The notes beneath the pieces are model-generated. The model did no database searches. It was not told where the DNA came from and worked only from the letters and a program-made list of their open reading frames with translations. This document shows positions 2,782 to 36,960 of a stretch of 44,724 nucleotides of DNA, piece after piece. The stretch is from a phage. Where the stretch lies: NCBI GenBank assembly GCA_025471175.1, contig GCA_025471175.1_4338.1; one strand, given 5' to 3'. Within the stretch, counting starts at the first letter, position 1. Every line of letters starts with the position of its first letter. Made by a program: the position numbers and the translations under genes.

Positions 2782-3302
2782 TTGGTCACCCCACATTTAG
2801 AGCACTGCTGTAAGTCGCTACACCACAGAACCAAACGATAGTCATGTTCACATTCCTGTGTGTCAATCTTGTATTCCACTATGTCTGCGTATGTTCCATC
2901 CCAAATCCACGACCGCTTTTCTGCTGCTACACTGTGTTTCGGCTCCTCCCCGTTGCGATACCGGATAAATACCATAGTCCCATCCGGCACAGGTTGTCGT
3001 GCACCATAATGCGGCCTCCAGGCGTTGTACTGAGTATTTTCTTTGCAGCAACCGGATTGCTCCATGGCATCGATGTATTCTCCAATGTCACCGGTAGACT
3101 TAGCTATCTCTTTACGCAAACGAACGACGGTGCTATTGGCGATATCAAGTTCTTTCTGTAACTCAGCCACCAGCGTCGACGCATCACGTAACTGATTCTT
3201 GAGTAACAACACCTCGTGTGCCAGGTCTTCACACTGGTTGCCATTTACCAGCTGCCGTAACTGGCCAATCAGGTACTCGAATACTTCGTTTTTGTTACCC
3301 AT
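2778..3302 (-). CDS. hypothetical protein, coiled-coil N-terminus
   Basis: 174 aa; ATG with AGGAGA RBS; first gene after promoter at 3333-3361. Confidence 0.55.
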   Translation of the reverse strand: MGNKNEVFEYLIGQLRQLVNGNQCEDLAHEVLLLKNQLRDASTLVAELQKELDIANSTVVRLRKEIAKSTGDIGEYIDAMEQSGCCKENTQYNAWRPHYGARQPVPDGTMVFIRYRNGEEPKHSVAAEKRSWIWDGTYADIVEYKIDTQECEHDYRLVLWCSDLQQCSKCGVTK

Positions 3303-3332
3303 CTCTGTCTCTCCTCTCGTTTGTGTAAATGA

Positions 3333-3361
3333 ATAGTAGCCTATTCTATCCCAGTGTGCAA
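3333..3361 (-). promoter_or_regulatory. sigma70-like promoter with AATAG-N4-CTATT element
   Basis: Read on minus strand: TTGCAC-N17-TACTAT; spacer/-10 carries AATAGtagcCTATT; ~25 nt upstream of gene start 3302. Confidence 0.5.
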
Positions 3362-3436
3362 GTAAATTTTATTAGTGTTTGTATTGTTGCATCTCCTGCA
3401 ATAGTCGCTTCGATTGTTGCGTTTGGTGAAATAGAA

Positions 3437-3475
3437 CAAAAATGAGAAAAATGATACGCTGCTGTGTAGCAGCGT
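3437..3475 (-). terminator. rho-independent terminator ending the 4543-3518 operon
   Basis: Hairpin acgctgct-gtgt-agcagcgt (3456-3475) followed on minus strand by U-rich run. Confidence 0.5.
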
Positions 3476-3517
3476 AAGTCACTCAGTAAAATCCCAAACT
3501 ATTGTTACAATATAACA

Positions 3518-3718
3518 TCACACTTCCGGCGGCTCGGGTAACGGCATCCAGTGGGTAACAAACTTATCGTAGTGATTCCAGAAAGGCTTTCTCGCATCAT
3601 CAGGGACGATGTAATAATCGTGCTGCACTGCGTTATTCAACGTTTCATACCCCAGGAACTCCTTATCCGTATACCCATTGCCCGGCAGCATCCCACTACA
3701 CTTAATCCACTTACCCAT
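3518..3718 (-). CDS. hypothetical protein (66 aa)
   Basis: ORF track; ATG start; last gene before terminator. Confidence 0.45.
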   Translation of the reverse strand: MGKWIKCSGMLPGNGYTDKEFLGYETLNNAVQHDYYIVPDDARKPFWNHYDKFVTHWMPLPEPPEV

Positions 3719-4089: not shown

Positions 4090-4347
4090 TTATTCACGGC
4101 AACCTCCCTCAGAGTCGTCGGCACGAGCATCATGATTCGATGCCGTTCTGAATGTTACCGCTGGTGTGCCCAGGACATTCACGGTAAAGGCTTCACCATG
4201 TGATTGCTCTAAATCCCACTCATCACCTTCCTCGTCTAAAACGTAGAGACGACCGTCGTAGTGTACTTTCAACGAATACTCGTTGCCTTTTATAAACCAA
4301 CCGCCCATTTCTGCTTTAGACTCAATACAAATTAATTCTTCCATCAC
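4090..4347 (-). CDS. hypothetical protein (85 aa)
   Basis: ORF track; AAGGG RBS before ATG. Confidence 0.45.
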   Translation of the reverse strand: MMEELICIESKAEMGGWFIKGNEYSLKVHYDGRLYVLDEEGDEWDLEQSHGEAFTVNVLGTPAVTFRTASNHDARADDSEGGCRE

Positions 4348-4534
4348 TTCGCCCTTTGAATTTAAAATTGTTGCCTATGAGCTTCATTTCATACTCTCGG
4401 TAATACGCCGTGGAACTTAACCCGTGCTCCCTGAGTAAGCTAACGACATAAGAACTTCGGTACACTGTCGATTTCTTTTCAATAATACCTAAGCTACCGT
4501 ACATCGTTTTCACCAACTGACCCTTCCTAAACAT
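4322..4534 (-). CDS. hypothetical protein (about 70 aa)
   Basis: ORF track 4322..4543 (GTG); third in-frame ATG at 4532-4534 sits 8 nt after GAGGAG. Confidence 0.45.
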   Translation of the reverse strand: MFRKGQLVKTMYGSLGIIEKKSTVYRSSYVVSLLREHGLSSTAYYREYEMKLIGNNFKFKGRSDGRINLY

Positions 4535-4569
4535 AACCATCACTCCTCTGTCTCATCCCGATAAGTGAA

Positions 4570-4598
4570 TAGTATCCTATTATGTTGGGGTGTGCAAG
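4570..4598 (-). promoter_or_regulatory. sigma70-like early promoter (leftward)
   Basis: Minus strand TTGCAC-N17-TACTAT; a ~37-nt block here is the exact reverse complement of the block at 27502-27538. Confidence 0.55.
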
Positions 4599-4644
4599 AG
4601 GATAGTTACGTTGCCGTTGTGATTCTTTCGTTTAATGGGATAGC

Positions 4645-4679
4645 GAGCGAAACGAAACGAACGTGGTGCCGAAGGCACC
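4645..4679 (-). terminator. candidate intrinsic terminator/attenuator after leader copy A
   Basis: On minus strand ggugcc-UUCG-ggcacc hairpin (forward 4665-4679) followed by acguucguuucguuucg. Confidence 0.4.
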
Positions 4680-4860
4680 AAGAGTGAGTGAGTGAGCTTG
4701 CGGTTCTGACCCACGGCAAATCAGTAACTTAGATATTTAGGCGGGAATTACAATAGACTTTGGCCCTTCCGAATGCGCCAGCGAGCCTCACTCCACACGT
4801 CGAGACGTGCTCGTTTCGCCTGCCGCGCACCGCGGTCGCTTGTTCATACTTCACAAGCTC
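4645..4860 (-). ncRNA. candidate ~200-nt leader RNA / sRNA, copy A
   Basis: Predicted transcript from promoter 4867-4895 to terminator at ~4645-4679; 5' ~110 nt homologous to copy B, including a 34-nt identical block (4830-4863). Confidence 0.3.
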
Positions 4861-4895
4861 AGGACGAGCTTAGCATATTTCTTAGTAAAAGTCAA
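4751..4895. repeat. copy A of a ~145-bp dispersed repeat (other copy 37062-37204)
   Basis: Left block caatagaNtNtggcccttccgaaNgcgNcagcg 29/33 identical; divergent ~45-nt middle; 34-nt perfect block ccgcggtcgcttgttcatacttcacaagctcagg; similar right flank. Confidence 0.7.
4867..4895 (-). promoter_or_regulatory. promoter P_A (extended -10), leftward
   Basis: Minus strand TTGACT-N17-TAAGCT with TGc before the -10; same architecture as P_B at 37176-37204. Confidence 0.5.
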
Positions 4896-4942
4896 TACCA
4901 GTAGCATCTTTTGTATCTTAGTAACTTTGTGTGGTGTTTTGG

Positions 4943-4971
4943 TTGCTTTTACAAAGTTACCGCCTTATACT
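4943..4971 (+). promoter_or_regulatory. sigma70-like early promoter (rightward)
   Basis: TTGCTT-N17-TATACT, ~30 nt upstream of the ATG at 5001. Confidence 0.45.
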
Positions 4972-5000
4972 TCGGTACATCTTACATAGGAGAACGTGAA

Positions 5001-5171
5001 ATGACTATCAATGAAGTAGCTGAACGTATTGGGGTGACGCGCCAGACAATTAATAACTGGATTAAGAGTGGAAAGTTTCCTGATTGCAGCGTTAAAGTAA
5101 TGGGTCGCCGGATGCCGGGGACATTTGACCGTAATAAAGTTGAAGCGTGGATTAAGGAGAACGTGAAATGA
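5001..5171 (+). CDS. small HTH DNA-binding protein (AlpA/excisionase-like HTH)
   Basis: ORF track 4911..5171 (TTG); ATG at 5001 with AGGAG 8 nt upstream; MTINEVAERIGVTRQTINNWIKSGKFP is a helix-turn-helix. Confidence 0.6.
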   Translation: MTINEVAERIGVTRQTINNWIKSGKFPDCSVKVMGRRMPGTFDRNKVEAWIKENVK

Positions 5172-5577: not shown

Positions 5578-7835
5578 ATATTGTTTTTGCAACGCTGCGT
5601 AATACATTCGATAAAAACCCGGTAGCCCGTGAAATGCCACTGGAGCAGTTTGTAGAGTATGTCTGCGATACATCGAAGCGCCTGTCCGTAGACCCGTCAT
5701 GGACTAAGGAAGAGTACGACGCGGCCAAGATTAAGCAGAAAGCAATTGCGCCTGTTGGTGGTCGCCGTAAGAACGCGATTCTGGAAGATAGTGTGGTTAA
5801 GTTCGACTTTGACCATCTCAACCGTACTCAGTACCGCGACCTGACCCGCAAATTCAAGAACGCTCCGTTCTTCAATATTCTGCACACAACGGCGTCGCAT
5901 CAGCACGCGTGTAAAAACGGTGATTACGCCTTTCGCGTTCTGGTTCCGGCTCGCACTCCGTTTAACTCTAACGACGCGTGGATGGTGCAACGTGCTATTT
6001 GTGCGGAGTTAGAAATAGACGAAGCGTTGCGCGACCACTGCACGGAAGACGGCAACCGCCTTATCTACCTGCCGCACAAAGAGTCGAAGATAACGGTTAC
6101 AGAAGGGCGTGTCATCCGTGCGGAGCGGTACATCAAGAAAGCCGAAGAGATGGGGCTGCGTAAACGTGAAGCTAAGACACTTGCCGCCGATGAGCACGGG
6201 CTTAACGCAGATATAGCGCATTTCTGCGAAGCAGAGCTTGGCCTTGACGCTTTATCTTCCGGGCGTGGGTATGAAGTGCCGTGCCCTAACGAACATCTAC
6301 ATACAGGCAAAGGCTCCACCAGCATCATGCTTGATGGTAAAGAAGTGCGCTTTGTGTGCCAGCACACGAATAACGGTGCTTGCACTGAGCTTAACCGCCG
6401 GCAACATTTGGCTTTGCGCATGTGCGGCCTGCCTGACGAGCTTAACGTAGACAAGCAACCTATCAGTATTAACAGCATTCGTGCGGCTCTGCCTGATTTA
6501 CCGGACGAAGATATTGAAGAACTACACCGCACAGAGAACGAGGAGCCTGTAACTTGTACGCTGGAAGACCTCGAAGACGAGCCGGAAGTAGAAAAAGAAC
6601 CTGCTTACCCCGTAGTAGACGGCCTTATGCAGACCAATGAGTCATTCTACATTTGCGCAAAGTCCCACACTGGTAAGTCAACATTTAGTATGGCGATTGA
6701 TGCTGCTATCGCCGCCGAAAAAAGATATGCGTTCGGCGGGGCTGAGGTCGCGGAAGGTCATGTGTTTATTTTTGCGGGTGAAGGTGCGCAGTCGTTCGAA
6801 CGACATAAAAAATCTTTGCAGATTGCCCTTGGCGATAACTTGGACCGCTTGCACATTATCGATTGTGTTGCGGAGGGGTGTAACTTACTAGACGAAGCAT
6901 GGCGACGTCAGGCGGTGAGAATGATGCGCCGTGTTGCCGGTGAAGAGAGAATTGTAAAGGTTACGTTTGATACTCTACAAACTTGCATACCGGGCTTCGA
7001 CGAGAACGACAACAGGTCGATGAAAGAAGCTGCGCAGGCGCTTAACGAAATAGCATCGACGCTTAACGCCGCGGTAGGTGCTATGGTGCACCCGACTAAA
7101 AACATCGATGAAACCGTACCATCCGAGAACGGCATGATGCCGAAGGGTGGTAGTGATTTTCACAACTCCATCGATAACGGGATGTTCCTGCATAAGCCGG
7201 ACAACGACAATAACTTAGAGATAAACCTGTATCACATAAAGAACAGAAACGGAGAACGGCAGAAAGCCAGAGGATTCGTAATACAGAAGATTCAGATAGC
7301 GGAACCGCCAGAAAAGAAAGAACCAACTCACAACTTCATGGGTCTTCCGGAAGGGTACAGTAGCGATGATGTACGCGATTTTGACGCAGGAAATCCACAT
7401 ATTGACGTCTTTGTTAACTTCAACGCCTTCTCTGTCTTCGTGAAGAAAGTAGAAGGCATGACCGACGAACAGAAGGAAGCAGTTAAAGAAAAGGTAGGCC
7501 AGTTCGAGAAACTGGATACCAAAGAAGCTACGGTTATTTACGCATTAGGTAAATTGCAGGAGCAGGGTGATGACAAGCGAGGGTTCTCCATGTCAGCTAT
7601 CGTCAAAGCCGCGAAAGAAGATAGTTACGGCGTGCCGATTAACGCTAATAACGACCTTAGAAAGAAACTGGAAGAGATGCACGAGGCCGGGGTTATAGTC
7701 TCAGGTCTGGATAACAACAACAGGCCCATACCTAAGCAGTACCGGCTGCCGTGGGGTATAAACGATAACAAGATTCCGAAGACAATATACGAGCCCAATG
7801 AGATGCTGACAGTGACAGAGGAGGATTTGGAATAG
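5574..7835 (+). CDS. putative DNA primase-helicase
   Basis: 753 aa; P-loop AKSHTGKST in C-terminal half; N-terminal half has Cys/His cluster and FDFDH-type motif suggesting a primase domain; first large gene of replication module. Confidence 0.65.
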   Translation: MNIVFATLRNTFDKNPVAREMPLEQFVEYVCDTSKRLSVDPSWTKEEYDAAKIKQKAIAPVGGRRKNAILEDSVVKFDFDHLNRTQYRDLTRKFKNAPFFNILHTTASHQHACKNGDYAFRVLVPARTPFNSNDAWMVQRAICAELEIDEALRDHCTEDGNRLIYLPHKESKITVTEGRVIRAERYIKKAEEMGLRKREAKTLAADEHGLNADIAHFCEAELGLDALSSGRGYEVPCPNEHLHTGKGSTSIMLDGKEVRFVCQHTNNGACTELNRRQHLALRMCGLPDELNVDKQPISINSIRAALPDLPDEDIEELHRTENEEPVTCTLEDLEDEPEVEKEPAYPVVDGLMQTNESFYICAKSHTGKSTFSMAIDAAIAAEKRYAFGGAEVAEGHVFIFAGEGAQSFERHKKSLQIALGDNLDRLHIIDCVAEGCNLLDEAWRRQAVRMMRRVAGEERIVKVTFDTLQTCIPGFDENDNRSMKEAAQALNEIASTLNAAVGAMVHPTKNIDETVPSENGMMPKGGSDFHNSIDNGMFLHKPDNDNNLEINLYHIKNRNGERQKARGFVIQKIQIAEPPEKKEPTHNFMGLPEGYSSDDVRDFDAGNPHIDVFVNFNAFSVFVKKVEGMTDEQKEAVKEKVGQFEKLDTKEATVIYALGKLQEQGDDKRGFSMSAIVKAAKEDSYGVPINANNDLRKKLEEMHEAGVIVSGLDNNNRPIPKQYRLPWGINDNKIPKTIYEPNEMLTVTEEDLE

Positions 7836-14221: not shown

Positions 14222-14370
14222 CAATGTTTGTATTTTGGACGACAGTAACCATGCTCGCACTGTTACTCGGCGCGGGAATAGCCGCGATGTTCTGTTACGG
14301 TCTGTTCTTTAAGTTTGTCGGTGTTGCCGTTCTCGGTGGGGCTTTCCTTACCTGGATGTTGCGGTCATGA
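14218..14370 (+). CDS. possible small membrane protein (50 aa)
   Basis: Hydrophobic; stop overlaps VRR-NUC ATG. Confidence 0.3.
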   Translation: MTMFVFWTTVTMLALLLGAGIAAMFCYGLFFKFVGVAVLGGAFLTWMLRS

Positions 14371-14651
14371 CTAAAGAGGGCCGCGTACAGAAATACGCAA
14401 AAGAGCGATTCGAGGCCATCGGCGGCCTCGTTCGTAAACTTTCCTACGAGGGGCGCTCGGGTGCCCCCGACCTGCTGGTAATTCTCCCTGGCGGCATCGT
14501 CTGGTTCGTCGAGGTGAAGAAAGACGAAAACGCGAAGCCGGGCCCCCACCAGCTACGAGAGCACGAGCGGATGCGTAAACGTGGTGCAAATGTTTTTGTC
14601 GTTGGGTCGTTTAAACAGGTTGACGACCTAATAGCGAACTATTATAGTTAG
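14367..14651 (+). CDS. VRR-NUC domain nuclease
   Basis: 94 aa; GAPDLLVILPGGIVWFVEVK fits the VRR-NUC PD-(D/E)XK pattern. Confidence 0.6.
   Translation: MTKEGRVQKYAKERFEAIGGLVRKLSYEGRSGAPDLLVILPGGIVWFVEVKKDENAKPGPHQLREHERMRKRGANVFVVGSFKQVDDLIANYYS
14620..14648 (+). promoter_or_regulatory. sigma70-like promoter with AATAG-N4-CTATT repeat
   Basis: TTGACG-N17-TATAGT; spacer acctAATAGcgaaCTATta; overlaps 3' end of VRR-NUC gene. Confidence 0.5.
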
Positions 14652-17446: not shown

Positions 17447-17580
17447 ACATCATAGCCCCGATTCCGGCATTGCAAAAACGTATCAAGGAACTCGAAGAAG
17501 AGGTTCTACGACTACGCCAGCAAAGAGACGCCGCTAATGCGCAACTGGCGTTTGTACTGGAGAAGTTATCAGAAGAGTAG
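17443..17580 (+). CDS. hypothetical coiled-coil peptide (45 aa)
   Basis: ATG overlaps upstream stop; last plus-strand gene before terminator. Confidence 0.35.
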   Translation: MNIIAPIPALQKRIKELEEEVLRLRQQRDAANAQLAFVLEKLSEE

Positions 17581-17582
17581 AG

Positions 17583-17613
17583 AAAAGGCCCCGTTTGGGG
17601 CCTTAGTTTTATT
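17583..17613. terminator. bidirectional rho-independent terminator
   Basis: aggcccc-gttt-ggggcct hairpin flanked by A-run and T-run; between convergent genes. Confidence 0.6.
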
Positions 17614-20368: not shown

Positions 20369-22999
20369 TTAATTAAAACCATCGCTGAATCCGTCGGAGA
20401 AACCGCTGCCGTATGGCGCGACGCCGTCGTATTTATAGAAATCTGCTTCATAGTTAATCCCGGTAATCTTAACCGTTCTGTCGTCTCCGGGGCCAACTGT
20501 AGAAACAAGAATCATCTGAGCATTATGCCTTGCTTCGTTACCGAATGAAAACTCAGTTTTTAGTGCGCTATTCCCTGTGTATATCGCCTCTTGAGGCGCA
20601 GAGAGCATAACCACTTCACGGTCGTGGCTTCCAGGCACAACAGCAACACTTTGAACTCCGCCGTCTCTCTTCTTAAGAATCAGTGAGTGGTCATCCCCCG
20701 GAGTAAACGTAACCGGCTGAGAAAGAATAAGGGTAAGCCCATTAACGGCAACGACATAACCATCTTGAGGTGCTACTCGCGAGCCTTTAACTACGCTTAT
20801 TGCCCGTCCTGGAAGCACAAAAACCCCTTCTTCTGTCGCCGTGAATGATACCGTCACCTTCTTCAACAGGTTCTTCTGGTACCGACGGTACGCCGCCCAG
20901 TACGCCTGACGATAATTACGTATACCTTTAGAGTCATACGTTTCTGTGTTAACACCACCCTCGGCGGGAATGCTGATGGTCTCTTTTACGTTAGTATCTG
21001 GGTCGATGTAGGAGAACTTAAGACTATCGTATACCTGAGCGTCGTTGAATGTGCGCGTCCACTTTTCCGAAGCTGTTGTCTTACTTCGATGTGTGAATAC
21101 CATTTCCGGCCCCATACGCGGGCGCTCGAAATCCAGTAATATGTCTTGCCCTTTACGATATGGAGTGCAGAAAATAGCATCGGCTATTGTGCTGATGATA
21201 TCCTGCATGGTCATTTTATAGTCGTCAAAAGTGTAGCAGAATTGACCCGCCTCCACGTTACCGAAATAATTCTCAATCTCGGTCTGAGTCGCTAACAACT
21301 TGTCCATATTGGATGTTGTTAGGTTGAGATTACCTACTACCGGGTCACGGGCGAGACGTATTAATGATTGAATGGCCTGAGTATTCGGTGTCATTACGGT
21401 GTCGAATACACCATTACCGAGGTATTTGTACACCATCTCTGTGGCGACCATACGTAACTGTGGTTGCTTAATCTCTGCGGCCCGCGGCGTCTGCTTACGT
21501 GCCGAGTGTACGGTGGTACGATTGCCGTAATGTGGCGTAGTGTCACGGACCTGACCGTAAAGGTTGATATAGGAAACCTCGTCTACCACGGTGCCCTCGA
21601 AATCAAGGTCCAGGTTGGTAACACGACGGGCACGTACCTTAACTTTCGACCTCATGGGCAAGTCGGCGTAAATAGTAACTCCGGTGTAGTCGGCGGACCG
21701 ACCAGATATAACGGCCTGTTTTGAATAGATACTCCCGTATGGGGCACCGGTTTCATCGAGTAGTTGGTATTGGAGTTCAATAGTTACCGACGTACGCAAT
21801 TTACTGCCGTTGTCTTTATACATACCGTTAGCGGCAGCGATGTTGGCTACCACGCGTTCAACTTCCAGGCGGTTTAAGGTGGTCCAGTCGGTTAATGTTC
21901 TTTCATACGTATCCACGGGGCCTACCCACGTGTCACTTCTCTGGGAAAGTGAATAGGTGGTTGAGCCTAAAGCAGCCCAATTAGACGCGCCGCCGGTGTC
22001 GACCCGCAGCTCGAAGTTATCGACATAAAGAACACGAAAGTTGCCGTTGGTATTTGTTACGTCCGGAACGTCAAAGTTATTGAACGACGCGGTGTCACCA
22101 ACAGATAATATTTCCGCGAAGCCAGAATCCCCCGTGTCGTCATACAGGTATCCAATTTTTGTAGCAGAGTCATATCTCACGCGGCCCGTGTCGCTTGGGT
22201 TGACCCGAATATCGTTCTGGGCTTTAAGAACGGCTCCATCTACTTCATTAGACGCGATAGTTATATAAAGATTCTGATTGATAGGTTCCCCCACCAGAAG
22301 CTGCGGGGTATTTGTATTGTTGGGGGATGTAAACGGCGCGTACACCGCGACAGAGGTCCCCGTAATCTCCTGTACCTTAGTATCGCCGTCGGTAATATCT
22401 TCGGCCTTGATGTCCAGATACCCACGACCGGCATCGTAGTATCCGTATTCAATAATGCGACCAGATTCATCGAATATTTTATAGGTAGTCATGAGGTCAT
22501 TAGGGATGGTCTGGACTTTGCCGCAAATATCATACGACCGTTCATATGGACGGGGTTTATTGTTTCGGTCCGTCAGGCTGTTGTTGGGGGACTCAGCCTG
22601 CTGGTTCGCTAAACTCGTTTTAGGCGTTTTCTGCGACGGAGAAATCAACTTGGTAACAAATTTAAGCACACCCAAAGGGTCCAGGAGTTTACCCAGAAAA
22701 CCGCCACCGCCACCAGCGCCTTCGATAATATGGAAAACATCGTCTTCTTTCAGCGCTTCGAAATCTTCAGTTACTTCCATGTCCTCGCCGATCTCGCCAC
22801 GGTAAATACGTACAGGCACCCCGTCGGGGATGTTAGCGACGACGTATTCCATCGGCGGTACGTTGTGCCGTTCGCGGTCGAAAGTACCGTCTTCGTTACG
22901 GGTGTAATGTAATGTCAGCGCCAAAATTCTATCTCCGCATAAGTTTCGCGCAAGTCTTCCAGACGGTCTAACCGTACCTGGCGACTCGCCAGCTCGCAA
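20369..22999 (-). CDS. tail tip / host specificity protein (J-like)
   Basis: 876 aa between NlpC/P60 tail-tip gene and tailspike; N-terminal boundary uncertain (track start overlaps upstream gene by 85 nt). Confidence 0.5.
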   Translation of the reverse strand: MRAGESPGTVRPSGRLARNLCGDRILALTLHYTRNEDGTFDRERHNVPPMEYVVANIPDGVPVRIYRGEIGEDMEVTEDFEALKEDDVFHIIEGAGGGGGFLGKLLDPLGVLKFVTKLISPSQKTPKTSLANQQAESPNNSLTDRNNKPRPYERSYDICGKVQTIPNDLMTTYKIFDESGRIIEYGYYDAGRGYLDIKAEDITDGDTKVQEITGTSVAVYAPFTSPNNTNTPQLLVGEPINQNLYITIASNEVDGAVLKAQNDIRVNPSDTGRVRYDSATKIGYLYDDTGDSGFAEILSVGDTASFNNFDVPDVTNTNGNFRVLYVDNFELRVDTGGASNWAALGSTTYSLSQRSDTWVGPVDTYERTLTDWTTLNRLEVERVVANIAAANGMYKDNGSKLRTSVTIELQYQLLDETGAPYGSIYSKQAVISGRSADYTGVTIYADLPMRSKVKVRARRVTNLDLDFEGTVVDEVSYINLYGQVRDTTPHYGNRTTVHSARKQTPRAAEIKQPQLRMVATEMVYKYLGNGVFDTVMTPNTQAIQSLIRLARDPVVGNLNLTTSNMDKLLATQTEIENYFGNVEAGQFCYTFDDYKMTMQDIISTIADAIFCTPYRKGQDILLDFERPRMGPEMVFTHRSKTTASEKWTRTFNDAQVYDSLKFSYIDPDTNVKETISIPAEGGVNTETYDSKGIRNYRQAYWAAYRRYQKNLLKKVTVSFTATEEGVFVLPGRAISVVKGSRVAPQDGYVVAVNGLTLILSQPVTFTPGDDHSLILKKRDGGVQSVAVVPGSHDREVVMLSAPQEAIYTGNSALKTEFSFGNEARHNAQMILVSTVGPGDDRTVKITGINYEADFYKYDGVAPYGSGFSDGFSDGFN

Positions 23000-23280
23000 T
23001 GACTAACCATACCGTCATAGTATACTCCGGCGTGCCAGATTACACGGTTTCTGTGCCGTGTTGCCATCAGCACGGCATCGAAGTTTTGCGGAGTTTCTAC
23101 GCGTACAAGGCCTTTAGTATCTTTATGGCCTTCTTCGAAGGCGTCGTTAATCTGTGTTGGCGAAGCGACGTTAAACTCAGGCGTAAAGAGGCCTACATCC
23201 GCACGAACGTTACGGACATGGTGCCAGCAATTACGACGGCGAAAGTCGTACGGCAACCCTGTATAAGAATTAATATTCAT
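22915..23280 (-). CDS. tail assembly protein with NlpC/P60-like domain (gpK-like)
   Basis: 121 aa; Cys-His-His arrangement (NCWHH...H); ATGA overlap. Confidence 0.5.
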   Translation of the reverse strand: MNINSYTGLPYDFRRRNCWHHVRNVRADVGLFTPEFNVASPTQINDAFEEGHKDTKGLVRVETPQNFDAVLMATRHRNRVIWHAGVYYDGMVSHCELASRQVRLDRLEDLRETYAEIEFWR

Positions 23281-23792
23281 GTGGACAAAACGCCCCGTAA
23301 CAATGGGATTACTGAAGGGGTCATTAGTTCACCAGTGGCCCTTTGGTTCAACATAGGAACGCCAACGTCGGCGGTAAATAGCCCCTTTTCCTGGTTTATC
23401 GACTGCAACTCGTACACAACAGGCCCGTCAGCCGGGTAAGACAAATCGGTACTAACAAAACGGCGGAATATAAACTTAGGCAACACGGTATTATCGGGCG
23501 GTATCCTATCCATCTCATCGTCTAACTGGTTTCCAATATCGGGCAATGCGAACGATGCTCGCTGGTCCATGTCGTTATTGTTGGCGGCCCCTTTAGCCTC
23601 CATTGGTGTGGCCTCAAACGTAACTACTTCTCCGGTCTCTAACGTTGCCGTCAGGTCAGAAGTTCCGCGCACAAGTAAATACCGCTTCGAAAGAAGCGGA
23701 TGCACTATCTCCAGCGTCGTGTAGTCAATCTCGCCGTCGGGGTTGGAGGCCAGCTTACGGCGATAGGCGGCTTCTACTGATTCCTGGCTCAT
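23277..23792 (-). CDS. minor tail protein (gpL-like, by position)
   Basis: ORF track 23277..23807; ATG at 23790-23792 overlaps upstream stop. Confidence 0.35.
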   Translation of the reverse strand: MSQESVEAAYRRKLASNPDGEIDYTTLEIVHPLLSKRYLLVRGTSDLTATLETGEVVTFEATPMEAKGAANNNDMDQRASFALPDIGNQLDDEMDRIPPDNTVLPKFIFRRFVSTDLSYPADGPVVYELQSINQEKGLFTADVGVPMLNQRATGELMTPSVIPLLRGVLST

Positions 23793-24283
23793 TGCATCGG
23801 GTCCCAAATTCGTGGAAACGTTGATTGCGCGGCTCCGTATGCTTTAAGGAATCCACCTAAGCAATCCCCATAACAACCGAACAAATCCGGTAGATTCTTC
23901 GTAAGGCAGGTATCTTCCTGAATCGCAGTCCGCTCCGCGGTTGCTGTGAAAGTAATTACCCAGTTTTTACCATCGTCGGTGCTGTCGCTAATGTCCGACG
24001 TAATAAGTACCTGGTGGTCTTCGAGACCTAAACCCGTATCGTGCGGCATGATAAATGAAGACGCACCGCCGTCTATGTTGTTCATGAAGCTATAGAACGC
24101 CTGTCGCCCGAGCGACGATACGACGAGCGTAACGCTAATCGGCACTGGCTCAAAGTATGTATCACGCCCCTGTCGCGGCACGCCACCTTGCACTTCTGTA
24201 CGCCAGATATTACTCCCTCGCGTTTGGGAGTACCCCTTCGACACTATTGGTCGAAGGGACATAGGGAATCTCAAATCACTCAT
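23789..24283 (-). CDS. minor tail protein (gpM-like, by position)
   Basis: 164 aa directly after tape measure gene. Confidence 0.35.
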   Translation of the reverse strand: MSDLRFPMSLRPIVSKGYSQTRGSNIWRTEVQGGVPRQGRDTYFEPVPISVTLVVSSLGRQAFYSFMNNIDGGASSFIMPHDTGLGLEDHQVLITSDISDSTDDGKNWVITFTATAERTAIQEDTCLTKNLPDLFGCYGDCLGGFLKAYGAAQSTFPRIWDPMQ

Positions 24284-24286
24284 TGG

Positions 24287-26623
24287 TTAATACCCCGGCT
24301 GGTTTCGCGTAGCCCGGCGGGACTTGGAGATTGCACTGTTGCTGTCTTGTAACGCCGCCGATACTGTTTCACTGATGATAACACGTAACCGCCCTTCGTC
24401 GTCACGCTCTGTAACGGCGGAATCAACTCGTCCGGTGGTGTTGTTGACGATTGTCACGCTGTCACCGCCTGACTTGTTGCCGTTCTCGCCCATAATCTGG
24501 CGCATCTGTTCCGCGGTACGTACGCGTGACGCCCCTGCAGGCATAATAACTTCCGGCTTGTTACGTTCCGCGATAGTAGATAACTGACCTGCGGCTAAGT
24601 TACCGCCCTGCTCACGGGCCGAACGAATCTTACCTATGTTCGCCAGACCTGCGGCTATCGCGGCGGCGGCAGCCACCGGACCAAGTACCCAACCGACAAT
24701 AGGAATCGCGGACGCAGATTTATAAGCCTCGATGGCGGATGTGTATGTGGCTATTGTGGCCTGAGCGATAGCGAATGCTTTATACGCGGAGGACGCCTCG
24801 CCTAGCGATGACTTAATGTTGTCCGCCATCATGCCAAAAGCGTTACCGGTAGCGTTGGCACGTTTCAATGCGTACTGGTCGTTTATCGCGTTAACCGCTG
24901 CCTGGTACTGCTCCTCGTTAATCAGATTCTGTTCACGGTATCTATCAGCAACGTCCAGTTTTTGTTGTTCCTGAATCTCCAGAAGCTCAAGCTCGGCAGC
25001 ATTCTGGCCCATAATCTGAGCCATGAAGTCCTCGCCTTTCTGGTTCTTCTCCTGCCGTTCTTTCTCCCGCTTGGCGAGTTCTTCCTGACGTGCGGTGTCC
25101 GCCTCCAGCATAATTTGAGTTTTGGCGTTCTCGTATTGCTGGTCGCTAAGAAGCTGGTTGCCGTAAAACTCTTGTAGCTTGGTTAACTGTTGCTCCTGAT
25201 TAGCTTCTATTTTCTGGAATACGTCGTCATTGAGATGAATCGACTGGTAGTAGAAATCCTCCGCGGCTTTCTTCTGGCGCTCGAACGCGTCCGCAGCTTT
25301 CTTGGCGGCTTTTGCACCAGCATTATCATCTTCGGACCCGCCACCAGTACCAGTTACCTTAAATTTACTAAGCCCTTCTTCCTTAGCGGCTTCTTTGTCG
25401 ATGTCATATGCCGCGCGTTTAAGCGCGACGATATTTTGCTGAGCCTCCACCTGTTCGCGGAAACTTTTACGGGTCAGGTCCGCAACATCGCGCTGAGTAT
25501 CCAGTGCCATCCCTAGCTGGAAGTTAATGTTTTTTGCTACGTCTACAGATTCCCCTGGTGTGAAGGCTGCTTTCACCAACCGGCCAGCGTCCTGCGCCCC
25601 TTTAACCATATCTTCAAAGAAGCGCTCCATCGCGGTAAATTCTTCCGCGATGAAATCGAGCGCATCGGCTGCTGATTCCGCGATGGTTGTCGCCGTTTGT
25701 TCGCCGCTGTCGGTGATACTTTTACTGCTAAAATCCCAAAGTTCATTCAGTCCATTTATCGCGTCACCTACAAAACCAAATGCCGCGTCGAACGACATCT
25801 CTATCGCGCTTCCTACTTCCGACGCGATGTCACCCCACATACGCATCTCTGCGGCAAGTTCACCGGATGCAACCTGTGCGTTAAGTTCCTGGATTAAATC
25901 ATTGATGTATCGGATAGGTTCGGCGAGCGCACCAACATCAAGACTGGTAGCCAGTGTCATTTTTAACTGCGACCATGAGTCGCTGGCACTGGCTATGGCC
26001 CCGTTAAGTGTGTTAGCCTGGTCCGCCATAGCCCCAGCGAAGTTTACGTTACCAATGTTGAGCAGGTATTGCTCTATATCGGCAGCGCTCTTCTTAACCA
26101 CCGTAGTAGTGCCCTGGAATGTAAATTCAACATCGTCTTTGTTCTGCTTAGCCTTGATGCCGAATTCTTTAAGGCGCTCAAATTCAAACGTACTGGCGTC
26201 CGCAACGGCCTCAATCATCTGATTTAGGTCTTTACCCATAGCAGCGGCAGTGTTGCCATAGGAGCGCAACGCTTCTTCTGATGGTGTAAGACCAAGCGCC
26301 ACAAGTTTACGGAATCCCTCTACTGCCTGTTCAAGACCATACGGGGTGTCGCGCGCGAAGTCTTGCAGGATGCTTAATGCCTGTCTCGCCCCCTGCGTGC
26401 TTCCGGTTAGTGTTTTCAGGCTGGCGGACATCTTGTCCAGTTGCCGTTGGGAGTCTACCAGTTCCTGTGCGGCCTTGTACGCGGTAGCAGCGACGATGGA
26501 AGCGAGGCCCGCTACCGCGGCCCCGGCTACCTTTGCGGACTTGGAAAGGTTATCAAGACGGTCTGAGGTAGCTTTCGCGCCTTGCTCTGATACTTTTACA
26601 ACTAAACTAGCTACATCAGCCAT
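24287..26623 (-). CDS. tail tape measure protein
   Basis: 778 aa, Ala/Gln/Glu-rich helical repeats; downstream of G/GT chaperone genes. Confidence 0.85.
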   Translation of the reverse strand: MADVASLVVKVSEQGAKATSDRLDNLSKSAKVAGAAVAGLASIVAATAYKAAQELVDSQRQLDKMSASLKTLTGSTQGARQALSILQDFARDTPYGLEQAVEGFRKLVALGLTPSEEALRSYGNTAAAMGKDLNQMIEAVADASTFEFERLKEFGIKAKQNKDDVEFTFQGTTTVVKKSAADIEQYLLNIGNVNFAGAMADQANTLNGAIASASDSWSQLKMTLATSLDVGALAEPIRYINDLIQELNAQVASGELAAEMRMWGDIASEVGSAIEMSFDAAFGFVGDAINGLNELWDFSSKSITDSGEQTATTIAESAADALDFIAEEFTAMERFFEDMVKGAQDAGRLVKAAFTPGESVDVAKNINFQLGMALDTQRDVADLTRKSFREQVEAQQNIVALKRAAYDIDKEAAKEEGLSKFKVTGTGGGSEDDNAGAKAAKKAADAFERQKKAAEDFYYQSIHLNDDVFQKIEANQEQQLTKLQEFYGNQLLSDQQYENAKTQIMLEADTARQEELAKREKERQEKNQKGEDFMAQIMGQNAAELELLEIQEQQKLDVADRYREQNLINEEQYQAAVNAINDQYALKRANATGNAFGMMADNIKSSLGEASSAYKAFAIAQATIATYTSAIEAYKSASAIPIVGWVLGPVAAAAAIAAGLANIGKIRSAREQGGNLAAGQLSTIAERNKPEVIMPAGASRVRTAEQMRQIMGENGNKSGGDSVTIVNNTTGRVDSAVTERDDEGRLRVIISETVSAALQDSNSAISKSRRATRNQPGY

Positions 26624-26975
26624 CGTTTCTGCCCTCGAAAATAGCGTCTAAGCTCATGATGATGTCAGATTCAAACATGTCTATATTCTGGCCCGAAACG
26701 GTGCTGTATGCCACTAAATCCGACCATCTTAACTGTTCGCGCGGGTACATCTTGATGCCGTCGTCATCCACTCGGCGGGTAAATTTGATTTCCCGGTACT
26801 TCTCGAAGGTGGTTAATAGCTCAGGGGGGCATTCTGGCCCGGTATCCTGCGTTGCTTCCGGCGCGTCTTGCATAACCCCCATAGCAATTAGCGCGGCTTT
26901 ATGTCCGTCGGCAATGCTGTCAAACTCCCGCCGTTTGTGGCGGGTTATGAAGTTCCAACGGGCAAACTGGAGCAA
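26616..26975 (-). CDS. tail assembly chaperone T segment (expressed as G-T fusion by -1 frameshift)
   Basis: Frame is open upstream of the TTG and overlaps the 3' end of the G gene in the -1 frame. Confidence 0.5.
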   Translation of the reverse strand: MLQFARWNFITRHKRREFDSIADGHKAALIAMGVMQDAPEATQDTGPECPPELLTTFEKYREIKFTRRVDDDGIKMYPREQLRWSDLVAYSTVSGQNIDMFESDIIMSLDAIFEGRNDG

Positions 26976-26980
26976 CGCGT

Positions 26981-27397
26981 CTACTTTTCCTGCAATTGGT
27001 GAAGCTGTTCGTTGTGGAAAACAACAACGTGTTCAGCGAGGCGTTTATATTGTGAGAAAAGAGTGTTCAGGTTCTCTTTATTAAATTCATCGTCGAGACT
27101 CCAACCGTTAACCAGTTCAAGTGCTAACTGGCGGTTAAGGTCCGTCGCGGCGTCTTCCATCTTAATATTGTATTCCGAGAAATCTTTCAGTTCCTCACAT
27201 TTATCACGAAGCGGTTTCAATTTACCTAATGCCGCGCGGTACGCAAGTGTAAACGCCCTCATAGCTTTAACGGCAACGTCTGCCTCCGGTGAAACAACGT
27301 TCAGCCACTCCCCTGAATCGGTGCCGTCTTTCAGTGGTATTGGCATACGGGCGCCTTTTTCTGCCTCAGCTTCGTAATAAAAATCAGAAAGTTTCAT
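26981..27397 (-). CDS. tail assembly chaperone (gpG-like)
   Basis: 138 aa acidic protein immediately upstream of T segment and tape measure. Confidence 0.6.
   Translation of the reverse strand: MKLSDFYYEAEAEKGARMPIPLKDGTDSGEWLNVVSPEADVAVKAMRAFTLAYRAALGKLKPLRDKCEELKDFSEYNIKMEDAATDLNRQLALELVNGWSLDDEFNKENLNTLFSQYKRLAEHVVVFHNEQLHQLQEK
26984..26990 (-). other. candidate -1 programmed frameshift site
   Basis: Minus strand GGAAAAG (CAG GAA AAG TAG) directly before the G stop; -1 frame continues into T ORF. Confidence 0.45.
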
Positions 27398-27504
27398 TCT
27401 TTAATCCTTTGGTTAAGAGGTTACTGGTTAAGGTTAATGCGCCAGACGGGAACCACCCGCTTTTCGTGTGCGACACTAGGCGCAAAATAATTCTAACACA
27501 TTAC

Positions 27505-27533
27505 TTGCACACCCCAACATAATAGGATACTAT
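27505..27533 (+). promoter_or_regulatory. sigma70-like promoter of the moron
   Basis: TTGCAC-N17-TACTAT; ~37 nt identical (reverse complement) to early-left promoter region 4563-4599. Confidence 0.55.
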
Positions 27534-27574
27534 TCACTTACACCAACAATGTTAACTCAAACAGGAGCTACCCC

Positions 27575-27766
27575 ATGACAGGTATTACTATGTTCTTCTT
27601 AATCATTATCGTTTTAGTTTATTTTATCCCATTTCTCGTGGCGCATATGCGCAACCATAAAGCTAAATTAGCGATATTCATGGCTAATCTGTTTCTCGGT
27701 TGGGTTCTGCTGCCGTGGGTATTTATTTTAATCTGGGCGTGCAACTCGAATGTCAAAGAGAAGTGA
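27575..27766 (+). CDS. Imm-like superinfection immunity membrane protein
   Basis: 63 aa, two hydrophobic segments; YFIPFLVAHMRNHKAKLAIFMANLFLGWVLLPWVFILIWA matches the remembered Imm_superinfect pattern; AGGAG RBS. Confidence 0.55.
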   Translation: MTGITMFFLIIIVLVYFIPFLVAHMRNHKAKLAIFMANLFLGWVLLPWVFILIWACNSNVKEK

Positions 27767-27805
27767 GCTAGTATAGGACAAATCCTAAACACGAGGAAGT
27801 AAAGC

Positions 27806-28936
27806 ATGGCTCATAAGAAAATAACCGACGAACAGTTACGGGAAGAATTGAACGCCGGAACAAAAATTATTGATATCTCACGTAAGTATGGAATCTCAGA
27901 CCGCGTTATCCGTATCCGTAAAGCGAAGCTGGCTAAGAAAGGTGTAGGCCACGGTCGCGACGTTAGTCACCTTGTGCCTGACGGCTACAAGATTAAAGGT
28001 ACGTCGTCTCTGGTGGACGAGTTCGGCAACACTAAACTGCAATGGGTTAAGACCGACACTGACGCAGAACGTCAGGTCGAGTTGATGAAAGCTGTAATCG
28101 AGGGCATGAAGTCAGAGATTACGCCGGTTGCGCCTGTTAAAGCCGTTCGCGCCAAACGTGACGATAAACTACTTAATCTTTACACTGTATCTGATTTCCA
28201 TCTCGGTATGCTGGCCTGGGCTGACGAGAGCGGCGACGACTGGGACATGAAGATTGCAGAAGACCTGTTCTCTCGATGGTTCGACGCGGCATTCCAGAAA
28301 GCACCGGACGCGGGAACAGGAGTTATTAACCTGCTGGGCGACCTTGCGCACTTCGATAGTCTGGATGCGGTTACCCCCGCAAGTGGTCACGTTCTTGATG
28401 CGGACACTCGCTATCAGAAACTTGTCCGCTACATGATTCGTATGGTCCGCCGTGTTGTCGGTATGGCGCTGGTTAAGCATAAAAATGTTCGCTTGCTTAT
28501 CGTGCAAGGAAACCACGACGAAAGCGGAATGATTTGGTTAGCTGAGATGTTTAGTACGCTGTACGACAATGAGCCTTGTGTGTTCGTCGATACGTCGCCG
28601 GATGTTTACAAGATGGTCCAACACGGCAAAACTACGCTGTTCTTTCACCACGGGCATAAGGCGCGATTCGACGCTATCGAACCGGTAATGATTGCCAAGT
28701 TCCGCAAAGCGTTCGGCGAGAGTGTTTACAGCTACGCCCACGTAGGCCATCTGCACCACCAGAAGATTGTAGAAAGCCGTAACATGATTGTTGAGCAACA
28801 CCGCACCTTAGCGGCTAAAGACGCCTACGCCTCGCGCGGCGGATGGATGTCGGGCCGTAGTGCAAATGTAATTACTTATAGCGCCGAATATGGCGAGGTC
28901 GCACGTTTAATTATTTCACCGGAGATGCTGGGATGA
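27806..28936 (+). CDS. HTH-domain calcineurin-like metallophosphoesterase
   Basis: 376 aa; N-terminal HTH (DISRKYGISDRVIRIRKAK); phosphoesterase motifs SDFH, GDLAHFD, GNHDE, HHGH, GHLHH in canonical order. Confidence 0.65.
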   Translation: MAHKKITDEQLREELNAGTKIIDISRKYGISDRVIRIRKAKLAKKGVGHGRDVSHLVPDGYKIKGTSSLVDEFGNTKLQWVKTDTDAERQVELMKAVIEGMKSEITPVAPVKAVRAKRDDKLLNLYTVSDFHLGMLAWADESGDDWDMKIAEDLFSRWFDAAFQKAPDAGTGVINLLGDLAHFDSLDAVTPASGHVLDADTRYQKLVRYMIRMVRRVVGMALVKHKNVRLLIVQGNHDESGMIWLAEMFSTLYDNEPCVFVDTSPDVYKMVQHGKTTLFFHHGHKARFDAIEPVMIAKFRKAFGESVYSYAHVGHLHHQKIVESRNMIVEQHRTLAAKDAYASRGGWMSGRSANVITYSAEYGEVARLIISPEMLG

Positions 28937-29133
28937 AAGATATGTATGAATGCACCGATGTGAGTCCGTACGCGGAGAAAAATGGATTCGAAGTAGGCGC
29001 TGTATATGAAGGGGTCACCCTAGAGAACGGCGACGTAAGAATGTATTCGCCTAAATATCGCAGCTTCTTTGAAATAGGCAACATTAACGAGTCAGGCATA
29101 GCCAGATTTAAGAGAGTTAACAGTGACAAATAA
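28933..29133 (+). CDS. hypothetical protein (66 aa)
   Basis: ATGA overlap with upstream gene. Confidence 0.45.
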   Translation: MKDMYECTDVSPYAEKNGFEVGAVYEGVTLENGDVRMYSPKYRSFFEIGNINESGIARFKRVNSDK

Positions 29134-29353
29134 ATACAACCGCACAATGACAAACATTCACGGCAGCACTATGACAGTAGACGTTTACGATGTTCTCCGT
29201 GCCTTCGACATCCGTGACCCTGCACTACAGCACGCATTGAAGAAACTATTGTGTATGGGTCTTCGCGGGCACAAGGACACCGGAACCGACTTAGCGGAAG
29301 CAATTGAAAGTCTGGAGAAGTTACGGGAGTACCATAGTAATATTGATGAGTGA
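29123..29353 (+). CDS. small phage protein, possibly DUF3310-like
   Basis: 76 aa; GTG with AAGAGAG upstream; motif match recalled from memory only. Confidence 0.4.
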   Translation: MTNKYNRTMTNIHGSTMTVDVYDVLRAFDIRDPALQHALKKLLCMGLRGHKDTGTDLAEAIESLEKLREYHSNIDE

Positions 29354-29355
29354 GA

Positions 29356-29385
29356 AAAAGGCCCCGAAAGGGGCCTTAGTTTTAT
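29356..29385. terminator. bidirectional rho-independent terminator
   Basis: aaggcccc-gaaa-ggggcctt hairpin with A-run and T-run flanks; same stem as terminators at 17583 and 37854. Confidence 0.6.
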
Positions 29386-30014
29386 CGTTGTGACTTAATT
29401 ACAGAAACAGCTCTTGGGTATATTCTCCCATCTATGGAATCCATAAGCGGCTTAAGTTCTTCTGCTATTTCCAATTTCCGCAACGTTCTGACCTTGATGG
29501 CTTCGTCCAAATCAATAAAATCGCCTAAGTTTTCTCGCACCCCGGTTATGGGGTTGTTGACACGGCATCGTATCTTGCCGTTTGTTTTTCTATAAGTAAG
29601 ACCTATTGGTAGGTCTCCTCTAACTGCCGCGCTGTCGGTTAGGAAGTTGTTTAAAACTCTCGGGACAAAGATGCATGTCTCCGGTGAGTATTCTTTGGTG
29701 TCTGTAAGTAAATCCTTGTCTACATGCCAACCATCTACGTAATTATCTTTATACCATTTAAAGTAGTTGGAGAAATACAGCCTGTCTTCGCATACTACCA
29801 CACCTGCGTATGTTGGGTGCTTAGCACCCCCGTGGTAGCACCTGAATATCATCGCATACCAAATATCGTACACTGGGTGGTTAACAGACTTTTTGCCGTT
29901 GAAAATACTGGTGGTAAAATCAGCGTCGTTGATACCGACACCGCAGATTGTTTTACGGCATGATATCGCCCGTTTTGATGCAGGTATCTTTTCAAATTCT
30001 TCATACAGAAACAT
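29382..30014 (-). CDS. putative HNH/His-Me finger endonuclease with AP2-like domain
   Basis: 210 aa; N-terminal YDIWYAMIFRCYH and WHVDKD...N pattern; C-terminal YRKTNGKIRCRVNNPITGVRENLGDF resembles AP2-type domain; GAGGTG RBS. Confidence 0.45.
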   Translation of the reverse strand: MFLYEEFEKIPASKRAISCRKTICGVGINDADFTTSIFNGKKSVNHPVYDIWYAMIFRCYHGGAKHPTYAGVVVCEDRLYFSNYFKWYKDNYVDGWHVDKDLLTDTKEYSPETCIFVPRVLNNFLTDSAAVRGDLPIGLTYRKTNGKIRCRVNNPITGVRENLGDFIDLDEAIKVRTLRKLEIAEELKPLMDSIDGRIYPRAVSVIKSQR

Positions 30015-30039
30015 TATTCACCTCGTCAGGCTCGTGTAT

Positions 30040-30081
30040 TTATCGGATAAAGGAAAGAGAGGGCACGACCCCTCTCTTTTT
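30040..30081 (-). terminator. candidate terminator/attenuator after tail tube gene
   Basis: 8-bp stem agagaggg/ccctctct with U-rich run on minus strand. Confidence 0.4.
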
Positions 30082-30121
30082 CGCCCGCTAAAGCTATCCT
30101 TTACGCTTCTTATACCACAAG

Positions 30122-36951: not shown

Positions 36952-36960
36952 GTTTCTCCT

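Follow-up and report, generated by a model that had tools for sequence, protein, structure and literature searches.

A structured leader RNA shared by the early control region and the late operon of a Kagunavirus-like phage

Introduction

Antitermination by the put RNAs of phage HK022 is factor-independent and depends on the zinc-binding domain of the RNA polymerase beta' subunit. Two put copies per genome lie just downstream of promoters, fold into two irregular stem-loops and act over more than 10 kb (PMC9378689). Here we describe a structured leader RNA whose layout recalls that of put, found in a 44,724-nucleotide phage contig (GCA_025471175.1_4338.1 of GenBank assembly GCA_025471175.1) that was analyzed at its full length and is called the window throughout; coordinates refer to it unless another genome is named. 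The early control region of this virulent Kagunavirus-type siphovirus, a coliphage, occupies the 466 bp between diverging early operons (4535-5000), and its real content is a functional paralogue, copy A, of an undescribed structured leader RNA, situated between tandem leftward promoters. The other copy, copy B, heads the late operon. Our literature search found no paper describing this RNA.

As with HK022 putL and putR, the leader is present in two copies, each past a promoter and before terminators and long operons, and like put it forms two irregular stem-loops with compensatory changes between paralogues (PMC9378689). The stems here are unequal, however, with a short 5' hairpin (P1) and a ~75-nt element (P2-P4) making up a core of 100-115 nt as opposed to ~70 nt for put, and the ancestral copy heads the late operon of a virulent phage, whereas put heads lambdoid early operons. 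Rfam holds no put model. The lambda P_R'-qut-tR' unit (6S RNA), which works with Q, offers a second parallel in its late promoter, ~200-nt leader and terminator ahead of lysis and structural genes, and an excisionase/AlpA-like helix-turn-helix (HTH) gene (5001-5171) adjoins copy A in a manner reminiscent of Q/AlpA-type systems. Q systems, however, act through a promoter DNA site together with a sigma-dependent pause and do not rely on a conserved RNA fold; the promoter spacer here shows no conservation from one genus to another. The -10 hexamer is nearly repeated after the promoter in Jerseyvirus (TACGCT...TACGCT) and Kagunavirus (TAAGCT...TGAGCT), whereas Cornellvirus has no such repeat. No Q homologue was identified.

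The lambda nut sites are likewise promoter-proximal RNA signals in two copies, and the terminal hairpin P4 of the leader often carries a GNRA loop (GUAA); they differ in that neither leader holds a boxA and in that the P4 loop is not conserved. No boxA (YGCUCUUWA, at most one mismatch) was present in 4544-5000 or 36950-37210, its 39 matches genome-wide are at chance frequency (36.3 expected), and no N-like protein was identified. Finally, the RNase III leader hairpins of T7 and lambda are similar in that they, too, are long interrupted helices that contain an internal loop and lie in untranslated leaders, but are without the conserved blocks (ACCGCGG..., CGGAAGGG) and the extra 5' hairpin seen here.

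The Guernseyvirinae, among them Kagunavirus, Jerseyvirus and Cornellvirus, include therapy and biocontrol phages in wide use and are candidate chassis for synthetic biology. A covariation-supported RNA at the head of their late operon is a first concrete handle on late transcription in the subfamily. If factor-independent antitermination were confirmed as its role, it would join put as the second phage RNA class of this type, and would supply a compact part for engineering long operons.

Results

A first-pass annotation, made from the letters and open reading frames (ORFs) of the window, had described 4544-5000 as an unusually long early control region with no credible ORF, holding three promoters, one copy of a structured leader, a UUCG hairpin with a U-rich tail, a (GAGT)3 microsatellite and CGAAA-type repeats, and had suggested that it is a regulatory hub. 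We recovered each of these elements at the positions given or no more than 1-2 nt away, and the description as a hub stands: the region combines divergent early promoters, a member of a promoter palindrome family, a structured leader under purifying selection and a positionally conserved hairpin. Copy A of the leader lies at 4747-4863 on the minus strand and comprises the 5' hairpin P1 (GCUUGU/ACAAGC), P2 (CCG.GGUGC/GCAUU.CGG), P3 and P4, followed by CGGAAGGGCC; the less structured 3' part of the leader (4697-4746, minus strand) carries the block GAUUUGCCGU, which also occurs downstream of copy B and of the Jersey leader. Copy B (37058-37204, minus strand) consists of the late promoter P_B (37204-37176) and the leader RNA (37172-37058). 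The two copies are 86-88% identical over the promoter and both leader ends and differ in the middle, and the copied segment of copy A extends from the -35 element to about +175. A Kagunavirus-built covariance model scored copy A at 115.7 bits and copy B at 140.1 bits, and another covariance-model hit on copy A reached 80.2 bits. By minimum free energy (MFE), copy A folds at -38.6 kcal/mol compared with -30.2 kcal/mol for the opposite strand, and both copies adopt a two-hairpin MFE fold that is ~8-11 kcal/mol better than that of the opposite strand.

The fold of the family comprises the 5' hairpin P1, a long-range helix P2 (CCG.GGYGC/GCRUU.CGG), P3, an internal loop, the terminal hairpin P4 and the invariant CGGAAGGG. 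P4 is often capped by GUAA, with GUAA, GUUA, CACA, UCCG and AUUA as the loop variants observed. Single-sequence MFE folds of Kagunavirus leaders (A, B and variants) and of Jerseyvirus leaders arrived independently at this architecture, which was not recovered from the single Cornellvirus-type sequence folded in the same way. We assessed covariation across 40 distinct sequences from Kagunavirus, Jerseyvirus and Cornellvirus and observed standard pairs in 94.5% of the pair cells, compared with 82.1% in column shuffles and 35-44% with slid partners, in an alignment fitted by the covariance model, which leans to structure and inflates pairing. Changes on both sides were seen at 12 of the 28 pairs, with a covariation score of 0.317 as opposed to 0.119 (0/500 shuffles). 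All five P4 pairs covary, and the P2 position 39-105 is found as C-G, U-A and A-U. In the raw sequences P1, P3 and P4 are visibly unrelated yet complementary, with P1 being three unrelated sequences in the three genera. The compensatory changes thus support the fold, and the frequency of G-U pairs identifies the late-gene sense strand, which is the minus strand of the window, as the strand of the RNA. On this comparison of sequences, the leader is an undescribed structured RNA that extends across the subfamily.

MAFFT alignment across genera misaligned P1, P3 and P4, and covariance-model alignments were therefore used. Full leaders of 210-220 nt folded singly yielded structures that were unstable and uninformative (z -0.9 and -2.1), and it was the comparative analysis that resolved the fold. 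Rfam 15 returned no match in the whole window at the gathering threshold, and at E <= 10 over 4400-5100 it returned chance matches only, none of them on the leader. Two candidate pairings were rejected along the way: the CCU/AGG closing helix with which the initial model began shows no covariation at all, is disrupted in some Jersey phages and is not claimed here, and a 9-nt complementarity between the leader bulge GCGAAACGA and the tail of the hairpin downstream is a chance match (~1 expected per 700 nt) that is missing from copy B.

In Kagunavirus, Jerseyvirus and Cornellvirus alike, the leader has a conserved promoter on one side and the spanin/scaffold/capsid operon on the other. Matches were found in 181 phage records at 224 places in total, with a second place in about 40 of the 181, and about a quarter of the phages with the leader have copy A. 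In Jersey-type loci the covariance model found the leader at one fixed place, ~0.6-0.9 kb upstream of the scaffold gene, and Cornellvirus-type loci were recovered after one model iteration. The late copy is the only one in K1G, Jersey and the Cornellvirus SP-031, where a candidate second copy (14276-14374 of SP-031, 13.4 bits) was rejected as an ordinary hairpin after a gene. Among the early-region copies, three or more sequence lineages can be distinguished; one is identical to another phage's late copy, so the early and late loci exchange sequence. Ten distinct early-region copies retain 97.1% pairing and display three fully compensated versions of P4, and this maintenance of pairing argues that copy A is functional and not a decaying duplicate. 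In K1G and Jersey, unrelated sequence replaces copy A and the central part of the region, with the order of elements unchanged: a strong distal promoter, several hundred nucleotides of hairpin-rich leader, a stable hairpin, a proximal promoter and a gene. The leader had no match in 5,426 E. coli genomes, and a loose pattern run against IMG/VR (CCGCGG-N45-75-TYCGGAAGGG) gave chance matches among those listed, the new loci all failing to score with the model.

A larger, divergent leader is found at loci L086, L092 and L098, upstream of the spanin gene, and in Pantoea phage AH01 and Salmonella phages VSiP, St162 and PSDA-2. Its first hairpin is GC and its second is long, irregular and capped by GUAA, after which comes a conserved hairpin whose 5' arm mimics the spanin Shine-Dalgarno sequence. 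Covariance model R2 did not detect this AH01/VSiP/St162-type leader.

Closer inspection of the late locus revealed, in order on the minus strand, the terminator at the end of the terminase-to-Hoc genes (37873-37853), P_B, leader B, a hairpin with a U-tract (36995-36976; -17.2 kcal/mol) and the ribosome-binding site (RBS) of the first late gene, which encodes an Rz-like spanin (36951-36565), starts 25 nt past the hairpin and is followed by the scaffold and major capsid genes. The copy B hairpin clearly has the form of an intrinsic terminator, and P_B is the sole evident promoter between the upstream terminator and the spanin gene. From this layout it follows that the most abundant phage proteins rely on leader-headed transcripts that pass a terminator-like hairpin. 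At both copies the predicted promoters lie 4-8 nt upstream of P1 and the hairpins 60-90 nt downstream.

In the early control region the corresponding hairpin has a cUUCGg loop (GGUGCC-UUCG-GGCACC, 4680-4664, minus strand) and an interrupted U-rich tail, CGUUCGUUUC (4663-4645). Its seven pairs, five of them G-C, amount to -11.2 kcal/mol (z -2.9), and 0/200 shuffles were as stable; it is terminator-like, but its U-tract is weak and the U residues are interrupted. A non-homologous hairpin, GGGGUGGGC-UAAC-GCCCACCCC, takes the same place in four further loci (L009, L021, L036 and L042) and in K1G. In every clade, and at the early as well as the late locus, the leader is succeeded by a hairpin; the hairpin sequences are non-homologous, and the order promoter, leader, hairpin, gene is conserved. 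The CGAAA run (4647-4663) is merely the complement of the U-rich tail. The microsatellite is (GAGT)3.8 at 4682-4696, read as (CUCA)n in the RNA, with a Tandem Repeats Finder score of 30, the minimum; relatives have 3 or 6 units, 6 being seen in one relative. Further intrinsic-terminator-like sites lie at 3476-3455 and 39440-39425 on the leftward path from copy A.

Modules of this kind recur elsewhere in these genomes. In the window, a conserved terminator cassette, AAAAGGCCCC...GGGGCCTTAGTTTTAT, is present in three copies and both orientations at operon boundaries (17572-17612, 29345-29385 and 37845-37882). The early control region of K1G holds an exact 28-nt inverted copy of the late-leader terminator (36775-36802 vs 4615-4642), suggesting that control regions are built of shuffled modules. 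The early control region is a mosaic of reused promoter, leader and hairpin modules.

All three predicted promoters lie within 1-2 nt of where the earlier annotation had drawn them, and their support is comparative, coming from paralogy, from conserved hexamers and from the extended -10 TGn of the distal leftward promoter, not from hexamer score. That promoter, P_A (4895-4867, minus strand), has the layout TTGACT-17 with an extended -10 of TGcTAAGCT and a predicted start at ~4860, and is a paralogue of P_B. Upstream of the leader, the layout is P_A-like in both Jerseyvirus (TAGACT/TTGACT-17-TGtTACGCT) and Cornellvirus (TGGACT-17-TGaTAACCT), and the spacers are unrelated. P_A is without the TTATTCC/GGAATAA half-sites found upstream of P_B, where three per promoter stand in inverted arrangement just upstream of the late-promoter -35 element (37205-37260 in the window). 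These half-sites are present in Kagunavirus, Jerseyvirus and Cornellvirus (loci L069-L113, upstream of the leader) and could be where a late activator or repressor binds.

The proximal leftward promoter, P_earlyL (4597-4569, minus strand; TTGCAC-17-TACTAT), carries the palindrome AATAGTATCCTATT at 4568-4581, which is common to ~9 promoter-like sites in the genome. A 37-nt stretch of P_earlyL is an exact inverted copy (100%) of 27504-27540, upstream of plus-strand genes, and the promoter also resembles 37271-37306, upstream of another plus-strand gene. In the form AATAG-N4-CTATT the palindrome has 11 genomic sites compared with 1.23 expected (3332, 4568, 8099, 8143, 10855, 14630, 27521 and 37287, with weaker ones at 37196, 39407 and 44694), and it sits inside sigma-70-like -35/-10 frames upstream of early and middle genes. 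This motif has been published as a PHIRE 'phage promoter' attributed to a phage RNA polymerase (PMC9825357). The palindrome at 4568-4581 belongs to that PHIRE motif of Kagunaviruses (tgAATAGTa-ccTATTat-T); the difference is that the literature invokes a phage RNA polymerase, whereas the frames here are sigma-70-like. No RNA polymerase gene appears in the annotated records of K1G, Jersey and SP-031, and the palindrome has the look of an operator that would serve some regulator.

The rightward early promoter, P_R (4943-4971, plus strand; TTGCTT-17-TATACT), keeps its hexamers and 17-nt spacing in three loci (L037, L032 and L005) despite replacement of the spacer sequence. Between the back-to-back -35 elements of P_A and P_R lies a 47-bp AT-rich spacer (4896-4942) that is nearly invariant in all seven aligned relatives. 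Both TCTTAGTAA and TAGCAT(A/C)TTT of the P_A core recur within it (4871-4888 vs 4902-4924), and these repeated motifs may be either a scar of the copy A duplication or a second binding site.

More distant relatives, whose scaffold is 55-70% identical, carry a promoter near-identical to P_A and P_B (TTGACTTTTAC...TGATAAGCTC) that is directed away from the spanin gene (L100, ~1540-1640; L096, ~1380-1480). Its AAGCTC/GAGCTT arms enclose a 63-nt structured insert, which read in the spanin sense forms a large terminator-like hairpin after a very short ORF.

Judged by its ORF map and by PHROG and Pfam matches, the window is a complete ~44.7 kb Kagunavirus-like genome with Guernseyvirinae organization. 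The 901 bp around the region matched 447 phage records, led by Escherichia phage EcoPhCCP1 (91%) and followed by RP180, Golestan, Snoke and other Kagunaviruses, with Salmonella Jersey-like phages more distant. Rightward from 5001, to ~17.2 kb, run a 56-aa HTH_17 protein, the primase-helicase and other replication genes. Leftward from 4534 come small early genes and then holin and endolysin (1016-278), followed further round the circular map by terminase, portal, head morphogenesis and Hoc (42776-37877), a break at 36951-37877, and then spanins, scaffold, major capsid and tail genes down to 17609. The first leftward gene (4322-4534, minus strand; ~70 aa, PHROG 12538, function unassigned) starts at the ATG at 4534 with a GGAG RBS 9 nt upstream. 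The first rightward gene (5001-5171, plus strand) encodes an excisionase-like winged-helix DNA-binding protein whose best solved-structure match is an excisionase (E = 0.17) and whose Pfam family is HTH_17, not Phage_AlpA; a role as an AlpA-type antiterminator was rejected, finding no backing from Pfam or solved structures. The gap between these two genes, 466 bp here, measures 466-491 bp in phages with copy A, ~485 bp in K1G and 455 bp in Jersey, where it is the largest intergenic gap of the annotation, in line with the unusual length noted at the outset. A tRNA/tmRNA scan found none.

Discussion

Taken together, these findings make it very probable that 4544-5000 is a non-coding promoter and leader region with a functional structured RNA, and the best reading of it is a divergent early control region with tandem leftward promoters. 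The predicted P_R, of sigma-70 type, would drive the small HTH protein and the replication genes, and the proximal leftward promoter, with its family palindrome, would start transcripts just upstream of the first early-left gene. A transcript from P_A would instead begin with the ~115-nt folded copy A and run through the AU-rich stretch with the microsatellite, the stable hairpin and the proximal promoter into the leftward genes, from which it could continue into the lysis and packaging genes. By analogy with HK022 put, the nascent leader may act in cis on the complex transcribing it, such that polymerases from the distal or late promoter would read through the next hairpin and later terminators, and those from the proximal promoter would not have this property. 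We propose read-through, by anti-pausing or antitermination, as the leader's function tentatively, and on the whole would not yet expect it to be right. The overall account is our best explanation, and as a compromise between its firmer and its weaker parts we regard it as nearly an even call. The most far-reaching version is doubtful as a whole: that the leader represents a novel type of RNA, acting in cis to modify the host RNA polymerase, put-like in function and unrelated in sequence, that it drives the late operon of virulent siphoviruses through terminators without a dedicated antiterminator protein, and that a subset of Kagunaviruses copied it into the early region to obtain both terminator-resistant and terminator-sensitive transcripts.

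Several observations weigh against this account. K1G and Jersey do without copy A. Constitutive activity of P_A combined with terminator resistance would reach the lysis genes early, which is awkward, and the hairpins after copy A, the Jersey leader and the Cornellvirus leader have poor U-tracts and may not terminate. A consensus scanner (16-18 nt spacing, at least 9/12 matches) listed none of the three promoters, and its promoter-like sites overall, 8 compared with 7.1 expected, occur at chance frequency. The model-fitted alignment behind the pairing statistics favors structure, as stated above. With filters off, leader model R2 reached at best 6.7 bits (E = 1.4) in the HK022 immunity region (22000-31000), thus no put homology, and we found no transcript data in the literature for any member of the Guernseyvirinae.

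The leader could instead be an element of mRNA stability or processing, a reading that we consider rather unlikely. P1 may guard against 5'-end-dependent decay of the long late (and leftward) mRNA; alternatively, the irregular helix of 22 bp and more formed by P2-P3-P4 may be an RNase III site like those before T7 and lambda transcripts, in which case the downstream hairpin may serve as a 3' or 5' stabilizer and not as a terminator. Consistent with this, P1 lies within a few nucleotides of the predicted start in all clades, P2, P3 and P4 stack as a long interrupted helix, and the poor U-tracts of several hairpins suit stabilizers better than terminators. Stability or processing leaves unexplained, however, why CGGAAGGG is invariant and single-stranded, why the sequence of P2 is strongly conserved and why the Kagunavirus copy B hairpin has the form of a textbook terminator.

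The stretch from P_A to the hairpin (~4860 to 4650) could also be a self-contained small-RNA gene of ~200 nt whose product may work in trans, on targets of the host or the phage, or serve as a protein sponge, with copy A as a second, early gene dose. Its promoter, structured RNA and stable hairpin do form a compact unit, the lack of P_B's upstream half-sites at P_A could give it a different expression schedule, and a role as a seed or as a protein-binding motif is conceivable for the invariant GGAAGGG. At the ancestral copy B, however, the RNA must form the late operon's 5' leader, no other promoter being evident, and neither a complementary target nor, in the E. coli genomes searched, a match to the leader was found, so that we think this unlikely. 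The leader may alternatively be a protein-binding operator.

The first-pass annotation had further raised a possible replication origin, which fared poorly. A leader transcript rich in G-clusters may, by analogy with T7 or T4 origins or ColE1 RNA II, form an R-loop or primer beside the primase-helicase operon that adjoins the region, and the cumulative GC-skew minimum near 4.5-5 kb and the AT-rich DNA after the promoters fit such a role. Nevertheless, an origin in the region, or identical with it, is very unlikely. The region contains no iterons or direct-repeat arrays, its only tandem repeat being the marginal (GAGT)n, and no DnaA box, the genome-wide count of which is at chance. The AT-rich 4870-4960 is merely the space between two back-to-back -35 elements. 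The turn in GC skew near 5000 coincides with the change in gene direction, and a plus-strand gene island at 28-29 kb shows positive skew inside a minus-strand region, so that the skew appears, on weak evidence, to follow transcription. The center of the region is swapped for unrelated sequence in K1G and Jersey, unlike a shared origin core, the conserved home of the RNA is the middle of the late genes, and the compensatory changes indicate a folded RNA and not a persistent hybrid.

That 4544-5000 encodes a small protein is highly improbable, and the region is non-coding. Seven mechanical ORFs of 37-60 aa overlap it, and each is broken by a frameshift, premature stop or lost start in at least one of six relatives (79-97% identity), the broken versions lying, for every ORF, in one or more relatives at 79-89% identity. 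Indels in the aligned relatives include lengths of 1, 2 and 12 nt, copies A and B differ by a 2-nt indel, and the substitutions are RNA-like in that changes come in pairs. In favor of coding, a 60-aa ORF (4807-4989) is intact in 5/6 relatives, the EcoPhCCP1 record has three short coding sequences (CDSs) in the homologous region, GenBank ORFs there being 32-49 aa, and the Jersey gp08 CDS overlaps the leader; the 60-aa ORF, however, runs antisense through the leader and both promoters. A leader peptide was also rejected, as the short ORFs ahead of the hairpin are not conserved between clades. GenBank CDSs labelled 'hypothetical protein' cover the leader in Jersey (gp08, 7265-7456) and in many other leader-matching records, and three cover the early control region in EcoPhCCP1 (3243-3652). 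These are probably mis-annotations, and in practical terms many GenBank hypothetical proteins over the leader RNA and the early control region are probably wrong.

Cleavage at a packaging (pac) site usually falls in or near terS. A pac site for headful packaging, also raised in the first-pass annotation, is scarcely credible here: nothing beyond the non-coding status of the region speaks for it, the region lies ~6.5 kb from the terminase genes (42776-40945), leftward round the circular map, its sequence is not conserved across the genus, and PhageTerm found no defined termini in a related Kagunavirus (PMC9825357).

Further observations

On the plus strand between Hoc and leader B, a gene for a 173-aa protein (37327-37848) has its own palindrome-type promoter at 37271-37306. 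Its product shows weak matches to RusA-like and sliding-clamp-like families, and K1G has no gene at the matching position.

The octamer ACGGCAAC is found in the early control region at 4610-4617 (minus strand) and is ~10-fold over-represented genome-wide. Its inverted partner, ACGGCAA at 4708-4714 (plus strand), stands on the other side of the hairpin and microsatellite; the pair is kept in all aligned relatives, including one with a different hairpin, and the octamer or its complement recurs in the leaders of other clades. The window has 22 copies compared with 2.05 expected, Jersey 11 compared with 1.66, SP-031 15 compared with 1.89, and K1G 22. They occur in coding and non-coding DNA without a flanking consensus (for example at 13578-13585/13615-13622 and 35692-35699) and favor the late-gene sense strand whatever the local gene direction, by 16:6 in the window and 9:2 in Jersey. 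The E. coli Chi sequence GCTGGTGG has seven sites (3167, 6316, 14546, 14858, 22710, 36214 and 38876) compared with 1.19 expected (0/100 shuffles), and 6/7 are on the minus strand, the same bias as that of ACGGCAAC. This shared bias hints at polar motifs tied to RecBCD or to the direction of packaging or replication.

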